From NCBI GenBank assembly GCA_043819795.1, contig JBDREN010000221.1, positions 1 to 13,400 on the forward strand: DNA of 13,400 nt. Reading direction: 5' to 3'. The DNA is from Elusimicrobiota bacterium. Its GTDB lineage: Bacteria > Elusimicrobiota > Elusimicrobia > UBA1565. Every line of letters starts with the position of its first letter. Position 1 is the first letter of the stretch. Under the pieces are notes generated by a model that was not told the DNA's origin, searched no databases, and was given only the letters and a program-made list of their open reading frames with translations. Of the stretch, positions 1 to 11,618 are shown one piece after another. Made by a program: the position numbers and the translations under genes.

Positions 1-1166
1 CCCAGCGCCGCCAGCAGGGCCGTCGCAGCGGCGACGAGGCCTGCCGGGGGGTCGAAGGGAAGCGGCACGCGGGCCGCGGCGGGCAAAGCGATGACGCAGG
101 CCGCCAGCAGCAGACCCCCGAGCGCCGTGCCGAAGCCGCGCACCCACCGGTCGAGGCCGCGGTCGGTCTCCAGCGTGCCCAGCAGCCGGGCGCCGAGAAT
201 CGCCTGGTGGGCGAAGACGGGCAGGATGTAGGTGATCAGCTTCGAGCTCGAAGCCGAGAAGAACAGGAACACGAGCGCCGCCCAGAGGCTCAGCTGCCGG
301 TCGCGGGGGTCGGAGCGTCTCCAGGCGAGCAGCGGAGCGAGGACCGCGGTGAGGATCAGCGGGGTCCACGGCATGGTCCCGACCAGCTCCACGCCGATGA
401 AGTAGTACCACGGGCCGGGCCGGTTGTACTTGGACGTCAGGAATCGCTGGAAATGCTGCTCGATCACGAAGACGTGGAAGAATCCCGGGTTCTGCCGCTC
501 CATGGCCGCGAACCAGGAGCCGATGACGATGAAGAATACGGGTAGCCCCCAGTTGAGGAACAGGGGCCTGAGCCCCTTGCGCAGCCCGGGGAAGAGGACG
601 ATCAGGCCCGCGGTCCATACGCACGGGAGCAGCACCCCTATGAGGCCCTTGGAGAGGAAAGCGCCCGCCATCGCGATCCAGGCCAGCGCGCCCGCCCAGC
701 GCCCGTCTTCGGGACGGCGCAGGCAGCGCAGGATGAGCCCCGTCGCCCAGAGGAGGGCCACGCTGAGGGCCATGTCGGGGGTGATCACGTGGGACAAGGC
801 GTAGTACTCGGCGCAGGTCCCGAGCAGGATGGCCGAGCTCATGCCCACAGCGGGCGAGTAGAGCCACGAGCCGAGCCACCACGCCCCCAGCATCCCGAGC
901 ACGGCCAGCAGAGCCAGCGGAATACGGGCGGCGGCCTCGCCGACTCCGAAGATCCTATAGGAAGCGGCCCCGAGCCAGTAGATCAAAGGGGGCTTCTCGA
1001 CGTAGTCCACGTAGTTGAGGCTCGGGGTCAGCCAGTCCCCGCTTTCGACCATCTCTCGGGGGATCTCGGCGTAGCGGGCGTCGTCGACCTCCCAGAGCGG
1101 ATGACCGAGGTCCCAGAAGGGGGTGGTGAGGACGACGGCGAAGACCAGCGGGAGCAGACGTTTCAA
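1..1166 (-). CDS. ArnT/PMT_2 (GT39/GT83-like) lipid-carrier-dependent glycosyltransferase, 3' end runs off the window
   Basis: Not in the ORF track; translated by hand from TTG at 1166-1164: MKRLLPLVFAVVLTTPFWDLGHPLWEVDDARYAEIPREMVESGDWLTPSLNYVDYVEKPPLIYWL...AARIP...PDM...LSKGLIG...HFQRF...PWYYF...SKLITYILP. The D-x-x-RY-EI-REM, EKPP, KG and SKL-TYILP motifs plus many hydrophobic helices are typical of ArnT-like enzymes. The TTG overlaps the upstream TGA (TTGA, 1163-1166). Confidence 0.9.
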   Translation of the reverse strand, partial: MKRLLPLVFAVVLTTPFWDLGHPLWEVDDARYAEIPREMVESGDWLTPSLNYVDYVEKPPLIYWLGAASYRIFGVGEAAARIPLALLAVLGMLGAWWLGSWLYSPAVGMSSAILLGTCAEYYALSHVITPDMALSVALLWATGLILRCLRRPEDGRWAGALAWIAMAGAFLSKGLIGVLLPCVWTAGLIVLFPGLRKGLRPLFLNWGLPVFFIVIGSWFAAMERQNPGFFHVFVIEQHFQRFLTSKYNRPGPWYYFIGVELVGTMPWTPLILTAVLAPLLAWRRSDPRDRQLSLWAALVFLFFSASSSKLITYILPVFAHQAILGARLLGTLETDRGLDRWVRGFGTALGGLLLAACVIALPAAARVPLPFDPPAGLVAAATALLAAL

Positions 1167-2200
1167 ACCTTCAGGACCACCTTGCCGAACTGCCGCCGGG
1201 CGGCCAGGTATTCGTGCGCCTGGCGGGCCTCGGCCAGGGGGAATGTCCGGTCCACGACCGGCTTGAGCTTCCCCTCACGGAAGAGGCCGACGACCTCCCG
1301 GAGTTGCTCGAAGGGCCCCATCTTTGCGCCGAGGATCTGAAGCTCCCGGAAGAATACGTAGCGCAGGTCCGCCTCGACCTTCGCCCCTCCCGTGGCCCCG
1401 CAGGTGACGAGGCGACCGGCAGGAGCGAGGCATCTCACGGCTTCCTGGAACAGCGGCGCGCCCACGTGCTCGAATACGATGTCGACGCCCTTGCCCCCGG
1501 TGAGCCTCTTCGTCTTGCGCAGCGCGCTCTCCGAGGGGGTATGGAGGGTCTCGTCGGCGCCGAGCTCCTTGGCGGCGGCGAGCTTCTCCTCCGATGTGGA
1601 GGCGGCGATCACGCGCGCGCCCAGGGCCTTGGCGATCTGGATCGCGGCGACGCCCACGCCGCTGCCCGCCCCGAGAACGAGGACGGACTCCTCCGGACGC
1701 GCGCGGGCGAGGTGCTTGAGCATGTGCCACGCGGTGAGGAACGTGAGCGGGATGCTGGCCGCGCGCTCGAAGCTCATTGCCTCGGGCGCGGGCAGGAGGT
1801 TCCGGGCCGGCACCACGGCGAGCTCCGCGTAGCCTCCCCAGCCCCCGTCGGCTCCCAGGATGGCGTAGCGCTCGCAGAGGTGGTCCCGGCCGGACCGGCA
1901 CCACCGGCATTTCCAGCAGGAGACGCCCGGCGAGACGATGACCGCCGCTCCGGGCGAGGCCTGCCCAGAGCCCGCGCCGGGGCCGACGGCGACGACTTCC
2001 CCGGCGATGTCGTTGCCGAGGACGTGCGGCAGCTTGATCCTGTAGGCGGGGTTCCCCTCCCGGACCCAGACGTCCAGGTGGTTGAGCGCGCAGGCGCGGA
2101 CGCGGACGAGGGCCTCTCCCGGTCCGGGGGCGGGGTCGGGAAGCTCGCCGTAGACCAGGCTTTCCGGACCGCCGAAGCGGTCGAGCCGTGCGGCTTTCAT
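1163..2200 (-). CDS. Zinc-binding alcohol dehydrogenase / quinone oxidoreductase (MDR superfamily)
   Basis: 345 aa. N-terminal GroES-like domain (GGPESL...PGPGEALVRVRACALNHLD), structural Zn cluster CWKCRWC-x7-C, nucleotide-binding GAGSGVG, C-terminal FGKVVL. The catalytic GHE motif is replaced by GND, as in QOR-like MDR subfamilies. Confidence 0.93.
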   Translation of the reverse strand: MKAARLDRFGGPESLVYGELPDPAPGPGEALVRVRACALNHLDVWVREGNPAYRIKLPHVLGNDIAGEVVAVGPGAGSGQASPGAAVIVSPGVSCWKCRWCRSGRDHLCERYAILGADGGWGGYAELAVVPARNLLPAPEAMSFERAASIPLTFLTAWHMLKHLARARPEESVLVLGAGSGVGVAAIQIAKALGARVIAASTSEEKLAAAKELGADETLHTPSESALRKTKRLTGGKGVDIVFEHVGAPLFQEAVRCLAPAGRLVTCGATGGAKVEADLRYVFFRELQILGAKMGPFEQLREVVGLFREGKLKPVVDRTFPLAEARQAHEYLAARRQFGKVVLKV

Positions 2201-2292
2201 GTCGCCGGCGCCCCCCGTGTCGGCATCCCCCGTGTCGGCATCCCCCCCACGGGGGGATGCCTAAGTAGGGGGGCATGCCTCTCAAGCTTCAT
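2197..2292 (-). CDS. Putative mini-ORF C (31 aa, MKLERHAPLLRHPPVGGMPTRGMPTRGAPAT)
   Basis: ATG at 2292 lies inside the 42-bp repeat; its TGA (2199-2197) overlaps the MDR ATG (2200-2198) as ATGA. No homology evidence. Confidence 0.3.
   Translation of the reverse strand: MKLERHAPLLRHPPVGGMPTRGMPTRGAPAT
2212..2246. repeat. 15-bp tandem repeat CCCCCGTGTCGGCAT x2 plus a partial third copy
   Basis: Exact copies at 2212-2226 and 2227-2241, followed by CCCCC. Confidence 0.9.
2237..2261. repeat. Perfect 11-bp inverted repeat (REP-like hairpin)
   Basis: GGCATCCCCCC-CAC-GGGGGGATGCC. Confidence 0.88.
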
Positions 2293-2359
2293 GAGAGCGC
2301 GGTCCTCTGCCCATGCCGGGATGCCTAAGTAGGGGGGCATGCCTCTCAAGCTTCATGAG
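2254..2359. repeat. 42-bp exact direct repeat x2, 64-bp period
   Basis: GGGATGCCTAAGTAGGGGGGCATGCCTCTCAAGCTTCATGAG at 2254-2295 and 2318-2359. Degenerate similarity continues after both copies (GCGGTCCTCT vs GCGGTTCTCT). Confidence 0.93.
2282..2356 (-). CDS. Putative mini-ORF B (24 aa, MKLERHAPLLRHPGMGRGPRSHEA)
   Basis: ATG 2356-2354 overlaps the TGA of mini-ORF A (ATGA). It ends at TGA 2284-2282, overlapping the mini-ORF C start by 11 nt. Confidence 0.25.
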   Translation of the reverse strand: MKLERHAPLLRHPGMGRGPRSHEA

Positions 2360-2451
2360 GCTGCGGTTCTCTTCACGGGGGGCGTCACGAACGGGGGCCA
2401 TGGCCTCAATTCCGCGCTAGGGGACCGGACGGCACCGCGCGCCCGCATCAT
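2353..2451 (-). CDS. Putative mini-ORF A (32 aa, MMRARGAVRSPSAELRPWPPFVTPPVKRTAAS)
   Basis: ATG 2451-2449 overlaps the pfpI TGA (ATGA). It ends at TGA 2355-2353. Confidence 0.25.
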   Translation of the reverse strand: MMRARGAVRSPSAELRPWPPFVTPPVKRTAAS

Positions 2452-2966
2452 TCGTGCGCGGCGGCCAAGAAGCGCAGCATCTCCCGGCAGAAGGCGGGCA
2501 GGTCGTCGGGCTTGCGGGCCGTCACGATGTTGCCGTCGACGGAGACCTCCTCGTCCACGTAGTCCGCGCCGGCGTTCACCAGGTCGTCTTTGATCGCGTA
2601 AAAGCAGGTGGCCCTGCGGCCCTTGAGCACGCCGGCCGACACGAGCATCCAGCCCCCGTGGCAGATCGCGGCCGTGAGCTTGCCGGCGGCGCAGACGGAG
2701 CGCACGAACCTCGCCGGTTCGGGGTGGCGGCGCATGAAGTCGGGCGCGAATCCTCCGGGGATGACGACGCCCCGCGTATCCTCGGGCCGGATGTCGGCGT
2801 AAGACGCCTCGGCCTCCGCCGGGTAGCCGGTCTTGCTCTTGTAGGTGCGCCCTTTCTCGCGGCCCAGCAGCACGGCCGGATAGCCGGCCTCCTTGAGGCG
2901 GTAATAGGGGACCCAGACTTCCAGGACCTGATACTGTTCGTCAAGGAGGACGGCTACCGGCTTCAC
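2448..2966 (-). CDS. pfpI: PfpI/DJ-1 family protein (type 1 glutamine amidotransferase-like; protease/deglycase/glyoxalase III)
   Basis: Motifs E-x-x-x-P-YYRLKEAG, IPGGFAPD, nucleophile elbow AAICHG, DGNIVTAR-PDDLPAF. Start reassigned to GTG 2966-2964 (172 aa), which overlaps the dksA TGA (GTGA). Confidence 0.92.
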   Translation of the reverse strand: MKPVAVLLDEQYQVLEVWVPYYRLKEAGYPAVLLGREKGRTYKSKTGYPAEAEASYADIRPEDTRGVVIPGGFAPDFMRRHPEPARFVRSVCAAGKLTAAICHGGWMLVSAGVLKGRRATCFYAIKDDLVNAGADYVDEEVSVDGNIVTARKPDDLPAFCREMLRFLAAAHE

Positions 2967-3499
2967 AGCAGGGTCGCCGACGCCCGCTCGGACGTGTTCT
3001 GGCACTGGATGCAGTAGCGGGCGAACGGCACGGCTTTGATGCGCAGCTTCTCGATCGGCAGACGGCACAGCTCGCAGGCCCCGTAGGTCCCCTTGTCCAT
3101 CTTGCGGAGCGCGCCCTCGATCTGGTCGAGCGTGGTGCGCTCGTTGTCGGAGAGCTCGAACTGGAGTTCCCGCTCGATCGAGAGCCCCGCCTGGTCGGCC
3201 TCGTCCCCGACGTCCCGCTCCACCTCCTGGCGCTGGGTGCGCCGCATGATGTCGAGCACCTGCTCCCGCTGCTCGACGAGCTTCTTGCGGATCGTAATGA
3301 GATCGCTCTTTCGGATGCCGCCTCGGGCCAGAGCCCTCTTGAGCGGGGGCGCCGCCGCGGGAACTGGGGCGGTCTTCTGGGTCTTCTTCTTCGCGGGCTT
3401 CTTTTGGGCCTTCTTTTTCCGGGCTCCGGCCTTTCCCCCCGCCGTGCGCTTGGCCTTTGGTCGCGTCTTCGTTTTCGGTTTTCTCTTCGCTTTCTTCAT
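2963..3499 (-). CDS. dksA: DksA/TraR family C4 zinc-finger transcription factor with Lys-rich N-terminal extension
   Basis: Coiled-coil tip DEADQA (DxxDxA), ALRKMDKGTYGACELC...I...R..AVPFARYCIQC. GAGAGGG SD-like sequence upstream of the ATG. Confidence 0.9.
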   Translation of the reverse strand: MKKAKRKPKTKTRPKAKRTAGGKAGARKKKAQKKPAKKKTQKTAPVPAAAPPLKRALARGGIRKSDLITIRKKLVEQREQVLDIMRRTQRQEVERDVGDEADQAGLSIERELQFELSDNERTTLDQIEGALRKMDKGTYGACELCRLPIEKLRIKAVPFARYCIQCQNTSERASATLL

Positions 3500-3530
3500 G
3501 GGACCGCCCTCTCTAGGAAATGTGGGTTAT

Positions 3531-3558
3531 AGTGTAACGAGATTCTTCCATCTGTCAA
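3531..3558 (-). promoter_or_regulatory. Sigma70-type promoter for the dksA operon
   Basis: TTGACA (3558-3553), 16-nt spacer, TACACT (3536-3531), in an AT-rich island about 30 nt upstream of the dksA ATG. Confidence 0.65.
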
Positions 3559-3650
3559 TATGTAAATTTAGGCGCCGCCAGGAAGGTCCGCGGCATGGCG
3601 ACGACAATGACACTCTCTTGCGACGGGATGACTGATAACGCAGGAAAGCA

Positions 3651-3677
3651 AGCGCCGCGGGGCAAGCCCGCGGCGCT
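3651..3677 (-). terminator. GC-rich hairpin, probable intrinsic terminator (or REP-like element)
   Basis: AGCGCCGCGGG-CTTGC-CCCGCGGCGCT (11-bp perfect stem) starts 3 nt after the stop at 3681 and is followed by only a weak T tract (TGCTTTCC). Confidence 0.55.
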
Positions 3678-3680
3678 GAC

Positions 3681-5303
3681 TCAGGCATCCGGCTTCTTAA
3701 GGAGGTTTTGGAAGGTGGCCGACAGCATGCTGATCATTTCGTCCTTCTTGCGCAGCGTCGCGTCGAGCTCCTCGCGCTCCTTGTCCCATCCCGAGGAGCT
3801 CTTCTCGACCGCATCCTTCTCGCGCAGGGCCCGGCTCATGTGCTCGCTGAGGGTCTGGATCCGGGCGCGCAGCTCCGAGACGGTCTCCTCGGCGCGCAGG
3901 CGATTCTCGCGCTCGTCGTTGAGGAGCTTCTGGTGCTCGACGATCCTCCCCTCCCAGCCCTTGTCGGACTCCATGCGCCCCTCGACCTGCCGCCTGACCT
4001 TTTCCGCCTCTTCGGCCAGGGCCGTCACTAGGCTGTCCCGTTCGGCGGCCAGGGAATGGAAGCGATCCTCCTTCTGCTGGACCTCGCTCTTGGAGAGATC
4101 GATCCGCGCCTTGAGCGCCTCGACCGTGTTTTCGAGGGAGCCGATGTGCTCCTTGAGTTTCTGGCGCTTCGCCCGCTCGACCTCGAGCTGCCGGTTGAGG
4201 TCCATGAGGCTTTCGCCCATGCCGCGCTCGACCTCCCGGCGCTCGAGGGTGTAGGCGCGGAGCTGCTCGGTGCGCTGGTTGAGGGCGGCCATGAGGTCGC
4301 GCTTCTCGGCCTCGATCTCCTGGATCATCTGGTCTTTGGCCTTCGCCGGCCGCGTCAGGATCGCGTGGACCTTCTTGGCGAGCTCCTGGAGCTGCCCGAG
4401 GACGTCGGCCGCCCCGGTCTGGCGCTCGGCGAGCGCTCCGAACGACGCCTTCAGCTCGGCGATCTGGTCGTTGAACTGGGTCTCGAGCGCGATGCGCTCC
4501 TTGGTGTATTCGTGGCGGACGCGGTGATGCCGCTCCTCGATGGCCTCCTGGAGCGCCTCGCGGTCGCCGGTCATGGCCGTGAGCCGCTCCTGGTGAGCGT
4601 GAAGCTCACCCGCGAGCCGGCGGTCGATGGCGCCGAGGCGCTCGAGCAGGCTCTCGCCGAGGCGGTCGGCCATGCCGCGCAGCTCCTCGCGCACGGCCTG
4701 GCTCTCGGCCTCGCGGCGCTTCACGGCCGCCGGGACGGATTCGCGCAGCTCGGCCATGCCGTCGGCGACGTCCGAGACCGGCGAGACGTCCTCGCGCAGC
4801 CGCGAGAGGCCTTCCTTCAGGAGGCGCAGCTCCTGCCGGAACGCGGCGAGGTCCTCCGAGACGGCGCGGATCGGCGGGGCGAGCGATTCGCGGCCCGCCT
4901 CCTGCCGCTCCATGGCGTCCTTGAGCATCCCCGCCCAGCTCTTGTGCATCTCGTCGAGACGGCGCTCCAGGGACTCGACGCGCCCGTGCGACTGCTGCTT
5001 CTCCTCCTCCAGGTCCCGGACGGTCTTCTCCTGGCGCAGCTGCTCGCTGATCTTCTTGAGCTGGCTTTCCACCTCGCCGCGCAGGGACTCCTGCTGCTTG
5101 AGCAGGCCTTCGGAGGCCAGCGCGCGCTCCCGCTCCTTGATGATCTCGCGCTCCATGATCTCCATGCGCTGGCGCATGTACTCCATGAGCGCGCTCTCCT
5201 CCTTGTGGATGAGCCCCGCGGCCGGCGGCGCGGGGGGGCGCGGGGCCCCGGGCCGCGGCGGGAGCGGCCGCTTCGGGGGCTCGGGGGGGCGGTCTTCGCT
5301 CAT
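3681..5303 (-). CDS. Long coiled-coil protein of unknown function with Pro-rich N-terminus
   Basis: 540 aa, E/R/L/K/Q-rich heptads over nearly the whole length. No signal peptide, TM segment or Walker A motif. GAGGTG SD upstream; begins 7 nt after the porV-like stop. Confidence 0.85.
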   Translation of the reverse strand: MSEDRPPEPPKRPLPPRPGAPRPPAPPAAGLIHKEESALMEYMRQRMEIMEREIIKERERALASEGLLKQQESLRGEVESQLKKISEQLRQEKTVRDLEEEKQQSHGRVESLERRLDEMHKSWAGMLKDAMERQEAGRESLAPPIRAVSEDLAAFRQELRLLKEGLSRLREDVSPVSDVADGMAELRESVPAAVKRREAESQAVREELRGMADRLGESLLERLGAIDRRLAGELHAHQERLTAMTGDREALQEAIEERHHRVRHEYTKERIALETQFNDQIAELKASFGALAERQTGAADVLGQLQELAKKVHAILTRPAKAKDQMIQEIEAEKRDLMAALNQRTEQLRAYTLERREVERGMGESLMDLNRQLEVERAKRQKLKEHIGSLENTVEALKARIDLSKSEVQQKEDRFHSLAAERDSLVTALAEEAEKVRRQVEGRMESDKGWEGRIVEHQKLLNDERENRLRAEETVSELRARIQTLSEHMSRALREKDAVEKSSSGWDKEREELDATLRKKDEMISMLSATFQNLLKKPDA

Positions 5304-5310
5304 GGGCCGC

Positions 5311-6360
5311 TCACCTCGGGCGCAGCCGCCGGGAGTGCTTGGCCGGCAGGTTCCAGCTGACGGAGAATCGGTGGGCGTTGCCCAGCAGGCCGAACGGGAC
5401 GAAGGCGTAGTCGAAGGTGATGTCCCTCGCCTTGACGCCGAAGCCGAGAGTCACGCCGCGCAGGCCGTCGAGGCCGCTGAAGAGGCTTCGCGAGTTGAAT
5501 CCGCCGCGCAGGAACGCGATGAGCTTGTCCGTGGGGTTCAGGGAGACCTCGACGCCCGCCGCGCCGTAGGGGTGGTTCGAGATCGGGAACACGGCCTCCA
5601 GGGCGACGAGGACGGAGGGCTTCGGGTTGATGGAGCTCCCGAGACGCGCGCGGAACGGCAGGTTGTCCCGCACGGCGTCGAACTTCTGCCCCTGGCCGAT
5701 GTTCTGCAGCACGAGCCCGAAGTGGTACGGGAGGTAGACGTCCGTGTAGTGGGCCTGGATGCCCACGTCCCCCGAGAAGCCGTCGGCGTGGGCGACGAGG
5801 TCGGAGTGGAAGTAGCGCCCCCCGATCCCCATCGAGACTTCGCGCTCGGCGTCGCTGAGGTCCGTGATGCTCTGGCCCCAGCCCACCTCGTAGACGTAGT
5901 TGCGCGGATGGAAGGTCCCGATGGTGTTGCCGTTGATGTCGGTGTTCGTGATCTCGCCGACGTCCATGTAGCGTATGGCGGCCCCGAAGACGGACGTGTC
6001 GGTGGCGCGCTGGGCGTAGGTGAAGTGCTGCATCCGTATCCCGGCGAAGTACTCGTTGTGCATCGCGGCGGCCGAGATGCGGGGGATCGAGCTCAGCCCG
6101 GCGGGGTTCCAGTACAGGGCGTAGGCGTCCGCGGTGACGGCCGAGAAGGCCCCTCCCATCGCGATGCCGCGCGCGTCCACGTCGATGTTGAGGAACTCGG
6201 ATCCCGCCGTGCCGACGGCGTGCGAGCCGAAATCGGAGCCCCGCGCCCAAGGCGCCGCGAGGAACAGCGCCGCGGCGGCGATCCGGCAGGACCACCCCGC
6301 TCGCCCTCGCTCGCGGGGCCCAGGAGCGGAGGGCTTCCGTCCCGCTCGCATCCCCATCAT
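5311..6360 (-). CDS. PorV/PorQ (UPF0164, FadL-like) outer-membrane beta-barrel protein
   Basis: Signal-peptide-like RIAAAALFLAAPWARG, then the family signature FLNIDVDARGIAMGGAFSAVTADAYALYWNPAGL, alternating beta-strands and C-terminal DYAFVPFGLLGNAHRFSVSW. Start set at ATG 6360 (349 aa), an ATGA overlap with the upstream gene; ATGs at 6357 and 6351 are alternatives. Confidence 0.87.
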   Translation of the reverse strand: MMGMRAGRKPSAPGPRERGRAGWSCRIAAAALFLAAPWARGSDFGSHAVGTAGSEFLNIDVDARGIAMGGAFSAVTADAYALYWNPAGLSSIPRISAAAMHNEYFAGIRMQHFTYAQRATDTSVFGAAIRYMDVGEITNTDINGNTIGTFHPRNYVYEVGWGQSITDLSDAEREVSMGIGGRYFHSDLVAHADGFSGDVGIQAHYTDVYLPYHFGLVLQNIGQGQKFDAVRDNLPFRARLGSSINPKPSVLVALEAVFPISNHPYGAAGVEVSLNPTDKLIAFLRGGFNSRSLFSGLDGLRGVTLGFGVKARDITFDYAFVPFGLLGNAHRFSVSWNLPAKHSRRLRPR

Positions 6361-6615
6361 CGCACCACCGCCAGCTTCACCGTGTTCGTCGTGTCGCCGG
6401 ATTGGACCACCGCGATGTAGAGGCCGCTCGCGACCGGCCTCCCGACTTGGTTCGTGGCGTTCCATGTGAGCAGGCCCGACGCGTTCGCGTTGCGGTCGAA
6501 TACCTCCTCGCCGTGCACTGTGTAGACGCGCACGCGGGCGCCCGACGGCATCCGGTCGAACGTGAAATATCCCTGGGTGCGGGTGTAGAGCGGGTTCGGG
6601 AAGACCCGGGCGGCC
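6357..6615 (-). other. T9SS type A-like / FlgD-Ig C-terminal sorting domain
   Basis: Matches the (Y/F)PNP, IY-x-x-x-G-x-x-V, SG-x-Y and K-hydrophobic terminal motifs of Por secretion tail domains. Confidence 0.75.
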
Positions 6616-9600
6616 GAAAGCGAGCCGTGGGGCGCGATCTGCTGGAGCTGGAACTGGGACAGGTGGTTGACCTGAGTGAGCACCAGGTTCGACGCCGTGT
6701 CGACCGTGCTGTCGAGAGGGACGCAACTGTTGGAGACGGGGTCGTAGCGGACGATGGCGAGCGTGCTCAGGGAGCCGAGGTTCGTCTCACCCGGGAAGTA
6801 TTCGAGGCCGAGCTCGAACGGGATCAGCGGCTGGACCGACGGTAACGGCGTGATGGTGATCGCCGCGTTGATGTTGCCGCAGGGGAGAGCGCTCTCCGTG
6901 GAGATGAATATCCGCGTGTCCGAGTCGAACGTCTCGGGGATGACGCGCATGGTGACGCGGCGGCCCGAGGAGAGCGTCCCGTTGAGCACGGACATCCTCG
7001 CTCTCTCGACGAGCACCGACAGCGAGCCCGCCGGGCCGCCGCCGTTGTCGGTGAAGGCCTGAGTCGAGACCGAGGCGGTCTCGGTCCCGTACTGGTTCGC
7101 CGCGGAGATCCGGATGGAGTAGGTCTTCCCGGTGAAGAGGTTCGGGATCGTCGTGGCGAGGCCGGTGAACGCGTCGGCGAACGATATGTGGGTCGAGAAG
7201 GCCGTCGCGAAATTGTCGCTCGAGTAGACCACCTTGTACGTGGTCGACGAGGGGTTGTCGTTGGCGTCCCAGGCGACGCCGATGGCCGACGGCTCCGCGA
7301 CGGTGATCGTCGGGTTCGTCGGGGGCCGCGCGAGCGTGACGGTGCTGCTGAGGGAGGTGTACGCGGTCGAGATGTCGTCGCCGTTGGTCGCGGCGACGCT
7401 CACGTCGAAGCGCGTGTTCGGAGGCGTCCCGTGGTCGCCGGTGATCGCGATCGACTCGCCGACGAGGTTCGAGACCACCACGGGCTCGGTCGAGCCCTCC
7501 GCGGACACGCTGATCTCGTAGAGCGTCCCGATCGGGTTGGTGTTGGCGAACCAGACGGCCACGAAGCCGCCGGTGGAGACCTTCTGAAGCGGGGGCACTC
7601 CCGGCGTCGGGGGCGCCGCGAGCGTGAAGGTGGTCACGGCTCCCGTCAGCAGCCCGTCGCCCGCCTCGGTCACGGCTTGCACCTGCACGGCGCTCGCCGT
7701 GTTCGTGGAGAGCCCGGTCTGCAAAAACGAGTTGGAGGTGACCGTCGAGATGACGACTCCCGAAGAGGCCGAGTATACCTTGTAGGAGTTCGCGGCCTGC
7801 GAGGCCGGCCAGGACCAGAATATCTCGGTCTCGTTTTGCGCCTGGCCCTGCAGGCTGGCGATGACGCTCGAATAGGTGTGGATCGGGACCGTCGCGACCG
7901 ATACCTCCCCGTCGCCGCTGACGTTGTAGGCGGCGACACGGATCATCGACGAGGTGTCCGGCCCGAGGCCCGACTGGATGAAGGTCTGCGTCCCCCCGCC
8001 GCCGGGGACCACCGTCGAGATGAATACGCCGTCGGTGGCGGAGTAGACGTTGTAGCCGTCGAAGATCCCGGCGGCCGCGGGCCATGTCCATGAGATCGAG
8101 GAGACGCCGAGCAGCACCCCTTCCGGGATGCCGGGCACGCCGGTGGGCTTGGCCGGCCCGACCTGGACGATCTTGCTCTCGGAGAACTGGGCGTTGGCGG
8201 CCACGCGCAGATGGTACCAGCCGAACGGGAGGGCTGCGCTGGTCGCCGGGACGGAGAAGGTGATCGAGGTCCCCATTTGGGACCACGAGTTGACGCCCGA
8301 GGTGTATGCCCCGCTGGTCAGGTCGAGCAGGAACCCGCTGTCGTTGGCGGAGCTGTTCCCCGACCCGTCGATCCGCTGCAGGTAGACGCGGGGGTGGGCG
8401 TGCGAAGAGTTCGCGCTTCCCGCGCCTCCGCCCGAGGCTTCGGTGACGCCCTTGAAGCTGGTGCCGCGCACCGAGACCGCGGCCCCGGGCAGGAAGATAT
8501 TCGTATCCGTGCCGGTGATGGCCGGCCGGCGCCGGATGGCGCTCGGCGGCGACATGGCATCGGGCTCGCCCGCGAAGTACAGGCTGGTGGTGGTGTCCAG
8601 GTAATCGACGCCGGTGTAGCCGCCTATGCTGACGAGGTGGCCGTCAGGGAGCAGGACCGTCGTATGGTCGCCCCGGGCGACCGCGCCCTGCCCCTGGAAC
8701 TGCCAGGTGGCGAAGTCGACGTCGAACCCCTCGGCTATCTGGATCGCTCCGCCGAAGGCTTCGAAGCCCCCCACGAACAGCACCTTCCCGTCGGGCAGCA
8801 ATGTGGCGGTGTGGTTGAGGCGCGGGACGAGCATGTCGTTGCCCCCGATATCCTCCTTGGTCCGCGCCCAGGCGTTCAGAGCGGGATAGTATATCTCGGC
8901 TTTCCCGATTTCGCCGAAGCCGTCGTTGCCCCCCGCCACGAGGACCCGCCCGTCGCGCAGCAGGGTCGCCGTGTGGGAGTGCCGGCGGGTGTTCAGGGTC
9001 CCGGCGGTGGACCACTGAAGCGTGACCGGATCGAATATCTCCGCGCCCACCTTGCCTGTGGACGATTCCTGGCCCAGGACGCCGGTCCCGTTCACGCCTC
9101 CAACGACCAGAACCCTTCCATCCTGCATGATCGAGGCCGTATGTTGGGCGCGTTTGGTGTCCATCGAAGGGATCGACACCCAGCGGCGCGCGGTCGAGAC
9201 GTAGATCTCGGCCGAATTCAGATAGTTGCCTTCCGTGATTCCCCCCGCGACCAGGATGTTGCCGTCGGGGAGCAAAACCGCAGCGTGGTAGGAGCGCGAG
9301 GAGCTCATCGGGGAGGTCGGGACCCAGGCGCCCGTGTCCGGAAAGTAGGTTTCGGCCCGGTTCGTGGTGCCGGTGGAGGCGGCCGAGGTGAAGCCTCCGG
9401 CCGCGAGGACCGTGCCGTTGGGGAGCAGGGTCGCGCTGTGATGGCTGCGCGCGAGCTTCATGATGCCGGAGTCGGACCACGTCTCCGCGGCCGCGTCGAA
9501 GAGCTCGGATTCGGGCCTGACCTGGACCCCGTCCGACCCCCCGGCCACGAGGATCCGTCCATCGGGCAGGAGGGTGCTGGTATGGTTGCTGCGCTTTCTG

Positions 9601-11618
9601 GAGAGGCCTGCCGTCTGCCGCCCGGCAGTCCCTTCCGGCCCCAGGTAGATATAGACCAGGACGCCCGACTTGGCCGTGAAGTTGAACGCCGAGTAGTCGC
9701 TGGCGCTGTCGCAGGAGCGCCCGCCCGGCATCATCTGGTCGCCGTTGGGCAGGAGCACGGCGGAGTGGTTGAAGAGCGGGGGGCCGTGGGGACCGAACGA
9801 CCATGCGTCCTGAGAGGGGTCGTATTGCTCCATATCGGAGAATACCATCTGACGGATGCTGATCGAGGCGACGTCGAAATCGAACTCGATTTCGTCGAGA
9901 TTCACCGGGCTCACGACGTAGAATAGTGCGAGCTCCAAGTCGGTCGCCAACAGGCCGCCGACGTCGATCGGACTGTTCTGGGGCGTGGTGGTGCTGTTGG
10001 TGATCGCCCCCGTCACGTTGCTGAAGGTGACCGGCATGGAGAGCGTGGCCCCCCCGAGGCCGTCCGAGACGATCGGGCCCCCCCCGGTGATGCTGGCCTG
10101 GCCGCCGGTGAGCTCGATGTCGAAGCCCGCCGAGGCATCCGACGAAGCCTTGGATATGTTCCCCCCCTTGATGGTGGCGATGCCCGAGGTTATGGAGCCG
10201 CCGATGTTGGTCGGCGGGAACTGGACCACGATCGTGCCGCTCAGATTTCCGGACGTGATGAGCGAGGTGCTCGAGGCTCCCACGGGGTTCGGGGTGAAGC
10301 TGAGGGAGCCGGCGGTTGTGACCACGGATTCCGATACGACTTCCTGAGGCTGGAACTCGATCCGGCCCGGTACGGTTTCCAGCCGCAGCGTATCGTCGAG
10401 CTGTCCCGGCTCTGAGATCAGAACCCCGTCCAGAGAGGCGCTGATACCCGGGTTGTCGAAGAGGATCTTTGCGTCGGGCAACGTGGCGGTGGGGCTTGAG
10501 AAGAAGATGTCGCCGTCCACGATGCGACCGGTGACCGCGGCGGACAGCTCGCCGACGAGATCGATCGTGACTATGGAGTTTAGAACGTCGATGTCCCCCG
10601 TGGTGTCGCTGGTGGGCGTCGAGGCCAGGCTGCCGCTGGGGAAAACCAGAGGGCCACTGATGTAGGACGTCGTGATGTTGCCGAGCCCCCCGTAGAAGTT
10701 GACCCTGCCCTCCGGGGCGAGCACCGCGGAGTGGAACATCTTGCGGGCCTGCAGAGAATCCGCCGGCGTCATGCTGTCCGAGATCGGGTCGTAGATCTCG
10801 GCGGTGTCGAGGATTCCTTGGTTCAACTTCACGTTTCTGTCGTTGAAGCCCCCGGCGATCAGGACTTGCTGGTTCCCCATCTGCGTGGCGGAATGAAAGG
10901 CGCGCTTCTGGATAAGGGCGGGTCCGGCCGTCCAGCGGTCGGCATCGGGGTCGAACATCTCCGTGGTCACCGCGAAGTCCGTGCCGGTGTAGCCGCCGGC
11001 CACGAAGACGCGTCCGTTGTGCAGCAGAGTCGCCGTGTGCCCGGCGCGCCCGAGAATCATGGCCCCGCCCGAGCCGCAGCTGGCGCCGCCGCTCTCGAAC
11101 TGGTTGGTGGACGGGTCGAACAGGTCGCAGTCGGCCGTGGTCGCTCCCGTCAGCGCATTCGTCTCCCCGCCCGTGATCAGGACCTTTCCGTCCGGGAGGA
11201 GCGTGGCCGTATGGGCCCGGCGCGGTTGGTCCATAGTGTTGCCGGCGCCCACCCAGGTGTTCGTTTCCGGGTCGTATATCTCCGCGTCGCTGCAGACGTC
11301 GTTGTTGCAGCCAGTGTTGAAACCGCCGGTGACGAGGACCCGGCCGTCGGGCAGGAGCGTGGCGGTGTGGGATGTGCGCGCGACGCTCATCGGCCGCCCG
11401 GCCACGAAGCCGGGACGCGTGGAGATGTAGATCTCGACGGTCGTCATCGGCGTGTCGGCGCTGTTCGCGCCGCCGGCGACGAGCACGTTGCCGTCCGTGA
11501 GCAGCGTCGTCGTGTGGCCGTATCGGGCGGTGGTCTGCCCCAAGGCCGGAGCCGAGAATACGCACGCGAGGATGGGGAGGGAGAGGAAGGCGCCGAGTCG
11601 CATGTGCCGAAGGAGCAT
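6357..11618 (-). CDS. Large exported kelch-repeat / FN3 protein with T9SS type A-like (FlgD-Ig-like) C-terminal domain
   Basis: 1753 aa. Signal peptide (..FLSLPILACVFSAPALG), 14 repeats of R-x-x-H-T/S-A-T-LL-x-DG-x-VLV-x-GG...E-x-Y/F-DP...W, an Ig-like domain, four FN3-like repeats, a domain ending VNHLSQF, and terminal VFPNP...VRVYTVHGEEV...W...N..G..VASGLY...KLAVVR. Confidence 0.92.
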   Translation of the reverse strand: MLLRHMRLGAFLSLPILACVFSAPALGQTTARYGHTTTLLTDGNVLVAGGANSADTPMTTVEIYISTRPGFVAGRPMSVARTSHTATLLPDGRVLVTGGFNTGCNNDVCSDAEIYDPETNTWVGAGNTMDQPRRAHTATLLPDGKVLITGGETNALTGATTADCDLFDPSTNQFESGGASCGSGGAMILGRAGHTATLLHNGRVFVAGGYTGTDFAVTTEMFDPDADRWTAGPALIQKRAFHSATQMGNQQVLIAGGFNDRNVKLNQGILDTAEIYDPISDSMTPADSLQARKMFHSAVLAPEGRVNFYGGLGNITTSYISGPLVFPSGSLASTPTSDTTGDIDVLNSIVTIDLVGELSAAVTGRIVDGDIFFSSPTATLPDAKILFDNPGISASLDGVLISEPGQLDDTLRLETVPGRIEFQPQEVVSESVVTTAGSLSFTPNPVGASSTSLITSGNLSGTIVVQFPPTNIGGSITSGIATIKGGNISKASSDASAGFDIELTGGQASITGGGPIVSDGLGGATLSMPVTFSNVTGAITNSTTTPQNSPIDVGGLLATDLELALFYVVSPVNLDEIEFDFDVASISIRQMVFSDMEQYDPSQDAWSFGPHGPPLFNHSAVLLPNGDQMMPGGRSCDSASDYSAFNFTAKSGVLVYIYLGPEGTAGRQTAGLSRKRSNHTSTLLPDGRILVAGGSDGVQVRPESELFDAAAETWSDSGIMKLARSHHSATLLPNGTVLAAGGFTSAASTGTTNRAETYFPDTGAWVPTSPMSSSRSYHAAVLLPDGNILVAGGITEGNYLNSAEIYVSTARRWVSIPSMDTKRAQHTASIMQDGRVLVVGGVNGTGVLGQESSTGKVGAEIFDPVTLQWSTAGTLNTRRHSHTATLLRDGRVLVAGGNDGFGEIGKAEIYYPALNAWARTKEDIGGNDMLVPRLNHTATLLPDGKVLFVGGFEAFGGAIQIAEGFDVDFATWQFQGQGAVARGDHTTVLLPDGHLVSIGGYTGVDYLDTTTSLYFAGEPDAMSPPSAIRRRPAITGTDTNIFLPGAAVSVRGTSFKGVTEASGGGAGSANSSHAHPRVYLQRIDGSGNSSANDSGFLLDLTSGAYTSGVNSWSQMGTSITFSVPATSAALPFGWYHLRVAANAQFSESKIVQVGPAKPTGVPGIPEGVLLGVSSISWTWPAAAGIFDGYNVYSATDGVFISTVVPGGGGTQTFIQSGLGPDTSSMIRVAAYNVSGDGEVSVATVPIHTYSSVIASLQGQAQNETEIFWSWPASQAANSYKVYSASSGVVISTVTSNSFLQTGLSTNTASAVQVQAVTEAGDGLLTGAVTTFTLAAPPTPGVPPLQKVSTGGFVAVWFANTNPIGTLYEISVSAEGSTEPVVVSNLVGESIAITGDHGTPPNTRFDVSVAATNGDDISTAYTSLSSTVTLARPPTNPTITVAEPSAIGVAWDANDNPSSTTYKVVYSSDNFATAFSTHISFADAFTGLATTIPNLFTGKTYSIRISAANQYGTETASVSTQAFTDNGGGPAGSLSVLVERARMSVLNGTLSSGRRVTMRVIPETFDSDTRIFISTESALPCGNINAAITITPLPSVQPLIPFELGLEYFPGETNLGSLSTLAIVRYDPVSNSCVPLDSTVDTASNLVLTQVNHLSQFQLQQIAPHGSLSAARVFPNPLYTRTQGYFTFDRMPSGARVRVYTVHGEEVFDRNANASGLLTWNATNQVGRPVASGLYIAVVQSGDTTNTVKLAVVR
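7050..8160 (-). other. Four fibronectin type III-like domains (approximate bounds)
   Basis: Repeated I-x-W-x-W...Y-x-VY...GL-x-P/T-D/N-T...V-x-A-x-N/T and TLA-x-PP...W-x-x-N-x-NP-x-x-T-x-Y patterns. Confidence 0.75.
8575..11530 (-). other. 14 kelch repeats, probably two 7-bladed beta-propellers (approximate bounds)
   Basis: Counted from the translation; blade 6 is interrupted by a non-kelch segment at about 9845-10685. Confidence 0.8.

Follow-up and report, generated by a model that had tools for sequence, protein, structure and literature searches.

Can ribosomes be handed across a long intergenic gap by a series of throw-away open reading frames (ORFs), or is such a series what chance and repeats would leave behind? 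The question is raised by a contig of an Elusimicrobiota bacterium (C221), the whole of which was analysed and is called the window here (13.4 kb; the genome comprises 4.99 Mb in 241 contigs, with 66.8% GC). On its minus strand, a gene of the DJ-1/PfpI family (pfpI) and a gene of the zinc-type alcohol dehydrogenase family (MDR) are separated by a gap of 247 nucleotides (nt), 2201-2447, every base of which lies inside mini-ORFs of 32, 24 and 31 codons. A sequence-only reading of this DNA had described the layout, had stated that no base of the gap is outside a reading frame, and had proposed that the mini-ORFs pass ribosomes from the pfpI stop to the MDR start. The layout, with its junctions, is exact when the minus strand is read, and 2201-2447 is fully covered. 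On the origin of the tiling, we lean slightly towards a by-product of a repeat similar to repetitive extragenic palindromes (REPs) and of a local duplication, in stop-poor, GC-rich DNA, and not a selected relay.

Composition of the pfpI-MDR gap

The mini-ORFs and the repeats that build the gap lie in the window as follows:

2353-2451, minus strand: mini-ORF 1, 32 codons; its ATG (2451-2449) overlaps the pfpI stop (ATGA), its TGA is at 2355-2353
2282-2356, minus strand: mini-ORF 2, 24 codons; its ATG (2356-2354) lies on the mini-ORF 1 stop (ATGA), its TGA is at 2284-2282
2197-2292, minus strand: mini-ORF 3, 31 codons; ATG at 2292-2290, TGA at 2199-2197 within the MDR start ATGA (2200-2197)
2246-2372, no strand assigned: local tandem duplication, copies 2246-2308 and 2310-2372, 64 nt start to start (1 mod 3), 89% identity
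2232-2279, minus strand: one copy of the REP-like repeat, consensus (CATC)GCCCCCCTACTTGRGCNGCCCCCC-GYG-GGGGGGCNGCYGACA
2206-2250, no strand assigned: 15-nt tandem repeat of the hairpin right arm, about three copies, the last of which ends GCGAC directly before the MDR ATG

Three of the four junctions are ATGA overlaps (2451-2448, 2356-2353 and 2200-2197), and mini-ORFs 2 and 3 overlap by 11 nt. Mini-ORF 2 begins in copy 1 of the 64-nt unit and stops at the second TGA of copy 2; mini-ORF 3 begins in copy 2 and runs through the REP-like hairpin. Because both of these ATGs sit in the tandem duplication, two of the three relay starts are one event, copied. Each 64-nt copy contains CTCATGAAGCTTGA, in which one ATG is accompanied by a TGA in each of the two remaining frames. 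A frame that enters CTCATGAAGCTTGA either reads on or stops atop its ATG, which would make tiling almost automatic given the flanking ATGA motifs. Much of the robustness of the tiling is inherent in the sequence: 242 of 364 single-base insertions in the repeat-copy part leave it intact, as do, across the gap as a whole, 92 of 247 deletions, 398 of 988 insertions and 712 of 741 substitutions.

The 20-mer CTCATGAAGCTTGA occurs nowhere else in the genome, as judged by an exact search and by blastn of the gap against the genome. The ATG-bearing 64-nt unit was not found in 40 relatives, a set that includes no same-genus genome; of the gap, the hairpin part alone was matched there. The ATG-bearing unit had been taken for a member of an intergenic repeat family and is instead a duplication at a single locus.

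The hairpin part belongs to a dispersed family, whose unit consists of the hairpin and about 25 nt on its 5' side. The copy in the gap is an 11-bp GC hairpin with arms at 2237-2247 and 2251-2261 (GGCAUCCCCCC-GUG-GGGGGGAUGCC; predicted -24.8 kcal/mol, z -4.75), and, on either strand, the whole gap is predicted to be more stable than its shuffles (z -2.35 and -3.79). The genome contains 77 cores of the form C5-9/GYG/G5-9, with 70 outside our crude gene calls and 24 at contig ends, so the family probably breaks the assembly. Cores are often arrayed with a period of 44-51 nt, array spacings having no mod-3 preference, and in 33 of the 77 the 5-nt outer arms are perfectly complementary, in 10 different sequences. 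Dispersed intergenic cores, arrays and compensatory arms thus indicate that the hairpin family behaves like a REP-type palindrome. Reiteration of the right arm, of the kind seen at 2206-2250, is present in other copies of the family. Orientation relative to transcription shows no clear bias by eye (about 12 gaps sense, 6 antisense). Weak matches to the family also occur in the relatives G009 and G014.

The resemblance to REP and BIME elements lies in the short imperfect palindrome, its many intergenic copies, its arrays and its compensatory arm variation. Unlike these elements, it has unusual C6/G6 homopolymer stems, and no link to a RAYT-type transposase was found. Of six places that match PF01797 (Y1 transposase), five have open frames of 288-330 aa, and such a link was rejected, no core lying within 2.5 kb of any match. 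The intact transposase genes lie at C72:12754, C102:50213, C198:15598, C96:37536 and C140:10437 (L170-L175), none flanked by the hairpin family. We place the hairpin repeat among the REPs, as a new member.

Codon usage places the mini-ORFs in the non-coding range. They score -0.27 (mini-ORF 1), -0.41 (mini-ORF 2) and -0.26 (mini-ORF 3) per codon, or -0.30 when pooled, where 2209 intergenic ORFs average -0.305 and genes +0.30 (standard deviation 0.10). A Pfam search with the mini-ORFs returned no match. We also considered a vestigial gene and rejected it: blastn, blastx and tblastx of the gap against the six proteins of the window and the loci of nine relatives gave chance-level matches only (best E about 0.01, in tiny databases).

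A Shine-Dalgarno (SD) core between -18 and -4 precedes one of the four relay starts, that of mini-ORF 3. The MDR start has none in this interval and only a G6 run, as the sequence-only reading had pointed out. This is ordinary for the genome, because a core precedes just 31% of the 1691 crude gene starts that have 60 nt or more of gap before them (background 16%).

Tiling in shuffled sequence and across the genome

We counted a gap as tiled when ORFs with ATG starts only, overlapping by up to 11 nt, left no base uncovered. The comparison was with dinucleotide shuffles of the gap, both flanks being held fixed. Shuffles of the two-copy gap were fully tiled in 695/5000 and 738/5000 cases (14-15%), and those of the one-copy form in 524/5000. 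Full tiling by itself therefore sets the gap apart only weakly. A single bridging ORF accounted for 656 of the 738 tiled shuffles. The flanking motifs come easily: in the crude gene calls, 552 of 3273 stops and 1159 of 3337 starts lie on ATGA.

Genome-wide, 9 of the 378 co-directional gaps of 150-400 nt are tiled, compared to 3.1 (standard deviation 1.5) in shuffles. Two of the nine belong to an unrelated family that resembles mycobacterial interspersed repetitive units (MIRUs), which reportedly go back to Supply et al. in 1997. Two others look from their sequence like gene fragments, one with a twin-arginine-like and one with a phosphodiesterase-like N-terminus. The tiled gaps that remain are about the number expected by chance.

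The suggestion that the repeat family itself goes with tiling was not borne out. Of 21 co-directional gaps with a REP-like core, 2 are tiled, the pfpI-MDR gap included, against a shuffle mean of 0.52, and 5% of shuffles reach 2. When GTG and TTG starts are allowed, 3/21 are tiled (shuffle mean 1.62). The family's other co-directional gaps are thus tiled in 1 of 20 cases. The other tiled gap with a core, C171:8972-9289, has 316 nt and is bridged by one ORF of 106 codons, which has internal repeats and non-coding codon usage.

A possible ribosome relay in its operon context

The minus strand carries every gene of the window, and the gap lies within the following run of genes:

3-1166, minus strand: PMT_2 / ArnT-like glycosyltransferase gene (Pfam PMT_2, E 5.5e-15), truncated by the window end
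1163-2200, minus strand: MDR gene, zinc-type alcohol dehydrogenase family (Pfam ADH_zinc_N, E 1e-34; ADH_N, E 1.2e-26)
2448-2966, minus strand: pfpI gene, DJ-1/PfpI family (Pfam DJ-1_PfpI, E 2.2e-45), crude gene call
2963-3499, minus strand: DksA/TraR-type zinc-finger gene, DksA-like below (Pfam zf-dskA_traR, E 6e-9)
3531-3558, minus strand: sigma-70-type promoter-like site TTGACA-16-TACACT upstream of the DksA-like gene; 1 found, shuffle mean 0.1

In this setting, a single-locus relay of the MIRU type may be envisaged, with reinitiation at the pfpI stop and passage of ribosomes via mini-ORFs 1-3 to the MDR ATG. MDR and PMT_2 would be kept coupled and shielded from polarity, and the unit with one ATG and two TGAs would serve as a frame-reset module at any copy number. 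We hold this relay to be a serious rival, but less probable than a by-product of repeats. Most of the observations in this and the next three paragraphs speak for it and weigh against such a by-product. NTGA overlaps wire the rest of the operon: the GTG start of pfpI, whose stop TGA is at 2450-2448, overlaps the DksA-like stop (GTGA), and the stop of MDR, itself started by ATGA, overlaps the TTG start of PMT_2 (TTGA). These neighbouring starts are weak and lack SD cores, and the operon therefore seems to rely on reinitiation. The pfpI-MDR gap holds no promoter-like site. A relay of two or more ORFs is rare in shuffles, occurring in 82 of the 738 tiled ones and hence in 82/5000 overall. The gene calls are crude, being made by our own codon log-odds caller, so the genome-wide counts are approximate.

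The relatives point in the same direction. Contig scans of genomes and metagenomes with the MDR protein yielded relatives of at most 53% identity, and the loci L002-L010 of relatives were compared with 1163-3499 of the window. Six loci have the order p540 - DksA - MDR - PMT_2; here only 1-20 nt separate the DksA-like stop from the MDR start that follows, a start that is conserved and reads NTGA in 5 of the 6. The 247-nt gap therefore interrupts what is a tightly packed unit. One relative has DksA - pfpI - PMT_2 with a GTGA overlap, another has DksA - pfpI and then an apparently convergent gene, and pfpI and MDR matches are adjacent in none of the 40 relatives. Taken together, these gene orders mark the gap as a junction within a gene slot that varies, in a unit that is compact elsewhere. 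The genome of the window holds both pfpI and MDR in the DksA-PMT_2 slot, with the repeat-filled gap between them.

A second allele, in the contig of run X1, has one repeat copy and differs further by a 1-nt insertion and one substitution. It too is tiled throughout, a single ORF of 63 codons linking the pfpI stop with the MDR start. Whether one or two copies are present, and with or without the natural 1-nt insertion, the gap is tiled (all four combinations). The reference form is backed by contigs of runs X2 and X4. The X1 contig skips 64 nt and the X4 contig spans the two-copy junction; being contigs, they do not fully exclude an assembly collapse. A real small protein, encoded by one or more mini-ORFs or by the 63-codon ORF of the one-copy allele, is the least probable of the readings that we considered. 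Its frame is open in two alleles, but these differ by a frameshift plus 21 codons, the codon usage is non-coding, Pfam gives no match and the sequence consists of repeats and hairpin.

A true MIRU-like family is present in the same genome, so such elements are at home here. On other contigs we found 26 units at about 15 loci. The units are 53-56 nt long (variants 110-218 nt), begin with NTGA and end with GGAG-CGACC just before the next ATGA. They occur in 1-3 tandem copies, the final ATGA being a gene start. Of these units, 22 are 2 mod 3 in length, and the same 22 have an ORF that stops exactly on the TGA of the next ATGA; every ATG is preceded by GGAG at a distance of 5-6 nt. A native GTG start that has an SD of its own can serve as the left NTGA, and this points to insertion directly behind NTGA. 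An exact search for the pattern matched 6 of the 17 genomes of the bacterial family, and a reversed control gave 0 hits. The repeats were also seen in L176-L178, L180 and L181, from 5 related genomes, and they extend to related genera. A comparison by blastn found no similarity between this family and the pfpI-MDR gap. Examples of its places are:

C177:9567-9712, C122:16277-16610, C171:5031-5308, C90:31922-32143, C83:17519-17628 and C103:39126-39235: MIRU-like family (L179 is C10:1-1562)

The relay concept itself is in print for mycobacterial MIRUs (PMC12548453, section 11), which together with the family in this genome gives the relay a precedent. Our literature search found neither a relay of several ORFs nor one derived from REPs, and only this MIRU passage in PMC12548453 bears on it. 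We compared the gap with MIRUs by architecture. Like MIRUs, the gap has tandem units between co-directional operon genes, in the orientation of these genes and variable in copy number. Overlaps of 4 nt join its small ORFs to the flanking stop and start, and the effect proposed is the same, insertion with little impact on downstream translation. It differs in that the ATG-bearing unit is found at one locus only and has 64 nt (1 mod 3), and in that its relay has one 11-nt junction, an SD core at one of four starts and a tiling within the reach of chance. With the MIRU-like family of its own genome it shares NTGA-started units that end before the next ATGA, at gene starts and in tandem. That family is dispersed, is 2 mod 3 in 22/26 units and carries GGAG before each ATG. 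Judged by this yardstick, the pfpI-MDR gap falls short, with a unit that is 1 mod 3 and not dispersed and, less clearly, with an SD core at one of four starts; each of the three counts against the relay. The locus is at best of an atypical MIRU kind.

Termination-reinitiation, as described in PMC10666635 (abstract and section 7), needs overlaps or very short distances. It falls steeply with distance and is nearly abolished at about 20 nt, and the last 15 nt of the upstream ORF suffice for coupling. Since coupling is nearly lost by about 20 nt, a bridging ORF is the only way in which it could survive 247 nt, and the overlaps seen here are what the relay would require. The canonical -4 overlap of NTGA coupling (PMC6728339; PMC10666635) is present at three of the four junctions. 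The known cases join two real genes, whereas here three throw-away ORFs would have to work in series, an arrangement for which our literature search found no experimental test. Removal of the SD lowered reinitiation by 60-90% in three of five Escherichia coli pairs, and one further pair was strictly SD-dependent (PMC6728339, section 9). With losses of this kind, four serial reinitiations would multiply the loss, which argues against the relay, as does the finding that 14-15% of shuffles tile overall.

Of the proposed handover of ribosomes, the anatomy therefore stands, the mechanism is a legitimate one and the operon context fits, but the tests that had been proposed for it came out mostly negative. 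It is conceivable, although we doubt it, that an operon wired by NTGA overlaps healed a repeat insertion by a relay that arose in place from a REP-type repeat and not from a mobile element. Equally doubtful to us is that the frame-reset unit of such a locally evolved relay would pass ribosomes at any copy number and after most frameshifts.

Transcription, RNA folding and expression of MDR

The promoter-like site at 3558-3531 is the only sigma-70-type one in 1-5400. It probably marks the start of the DksA-pfpI-MDR-PMT_2 unit, of which the DksA-like gene is likely the first gene. At 3500-3680 (minus strand), a GC hairpin downstream of a 540-aa coiled-coil-like gene is followed by this promoter-like site. 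Farther upstream on the same strand, 6357-11603 encodes a protein of 1748 aa with many Kelch repeats and fibronectin type III domains, and the stop of this gene overlaps the start of the next (ATGA). A search of 1800-2900 against Rfam (E up to 1) gave three chance-level matches only, all far under the gathering scores.

REP-type hairpins are mRNA stabilisers. The repeat region could accordingly form an RNA 3'-end or stability barrier for the DksA-pfpI message, with MDR and PMT_2 expressed independently from an unrecognised promoter in or near the gap; whether ribosomes cross the gap would then not matter. We regard this as very unlikely. The hairpin is predicted to be very stable and the gap folds better than shuffles, as given above, but the hairpin has no U tract, and no sigma-70-type promoter-like site and no terminator-like site was found in 1900-2800, which includes the gap, in an organism that seems to use sigma-70-type promoters. 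The order from MDR to PMT_2 behind the DksA-like gene is also kept in six loci, which argues against separate expression.

Folding models allow for a translational attenuator, in which translation of, or stalling on, the mini-ORFs would refold the helices that enclose the G run and thereby adjust the expression of MDR and PMT_2. This is consistent with a perfect inverted repeat of 11 nt that acts over a long range (2209-2219 and 2374-2384), and with predicted nested helices in which C runs of the mini-ORFs bind the G run before MDR; for the G run, the prediction gives an unpaired probability of 0.0. However, stepwise removal of 5' sequence hardly shifts how accessible the MDR AUG (about 0.6) and positions -20 to -1 (0.14-0.38) are predicted to be, and no alternative terminator/antiterminator pair was found. 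The helices follow from the palindromic repeats themselves, and the 40 relatives, which include no same-genus genome, offer no conservation in its favour. This variant of the sequence-only reading gained no specific support, and we consider it very improbable. Coupling through RNA unfolding was likewise rejected, as stepwise 5' removal hardly alters the predicted accessibility of the MDR start: AUG to +12 is predicted to be about 0.6 unpaired in every 5' context tried.

In the by-product reading that we favour, the spacer would be composed of one REP-like hairpin copy, the 64-base tandem duplication and the 15-base reiteration, and it may have arisen where the variable gene slot was rearranged. 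The DksA-like, pfpI, MDR and PMT_2 genes would share one transcript, started at the promoter-like site at 3558-3531. The duplicated unit would merely happen to hold an ATG and a TGA in each other frame, giving the near-automatic tiling. Folding predictions suggest that MDR may be translated mainly by its own initiation at a mostly unpaired AUG, with incidental reinitiation from mini-ORF 3 as a possible extra.

The locus is mainly a caution: a GC-rich genome in which genes often end on ATGA should hold a few gaps that mini-ORFs tile completely (about 3 expected here). The MIRU-like family of this genome offers a yardstick for such claims, with its length of 2 mod 3, its own SD and NTGA at both ends. 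If the relay does work, serial reinitiation over several throw-away ORFs would bridge about 250 nt, a distance that otherwise abolishes coupling, and such bridges could arise locally from ordinary palindromic repeats and not only from specialised mobile ones like MIRUs.

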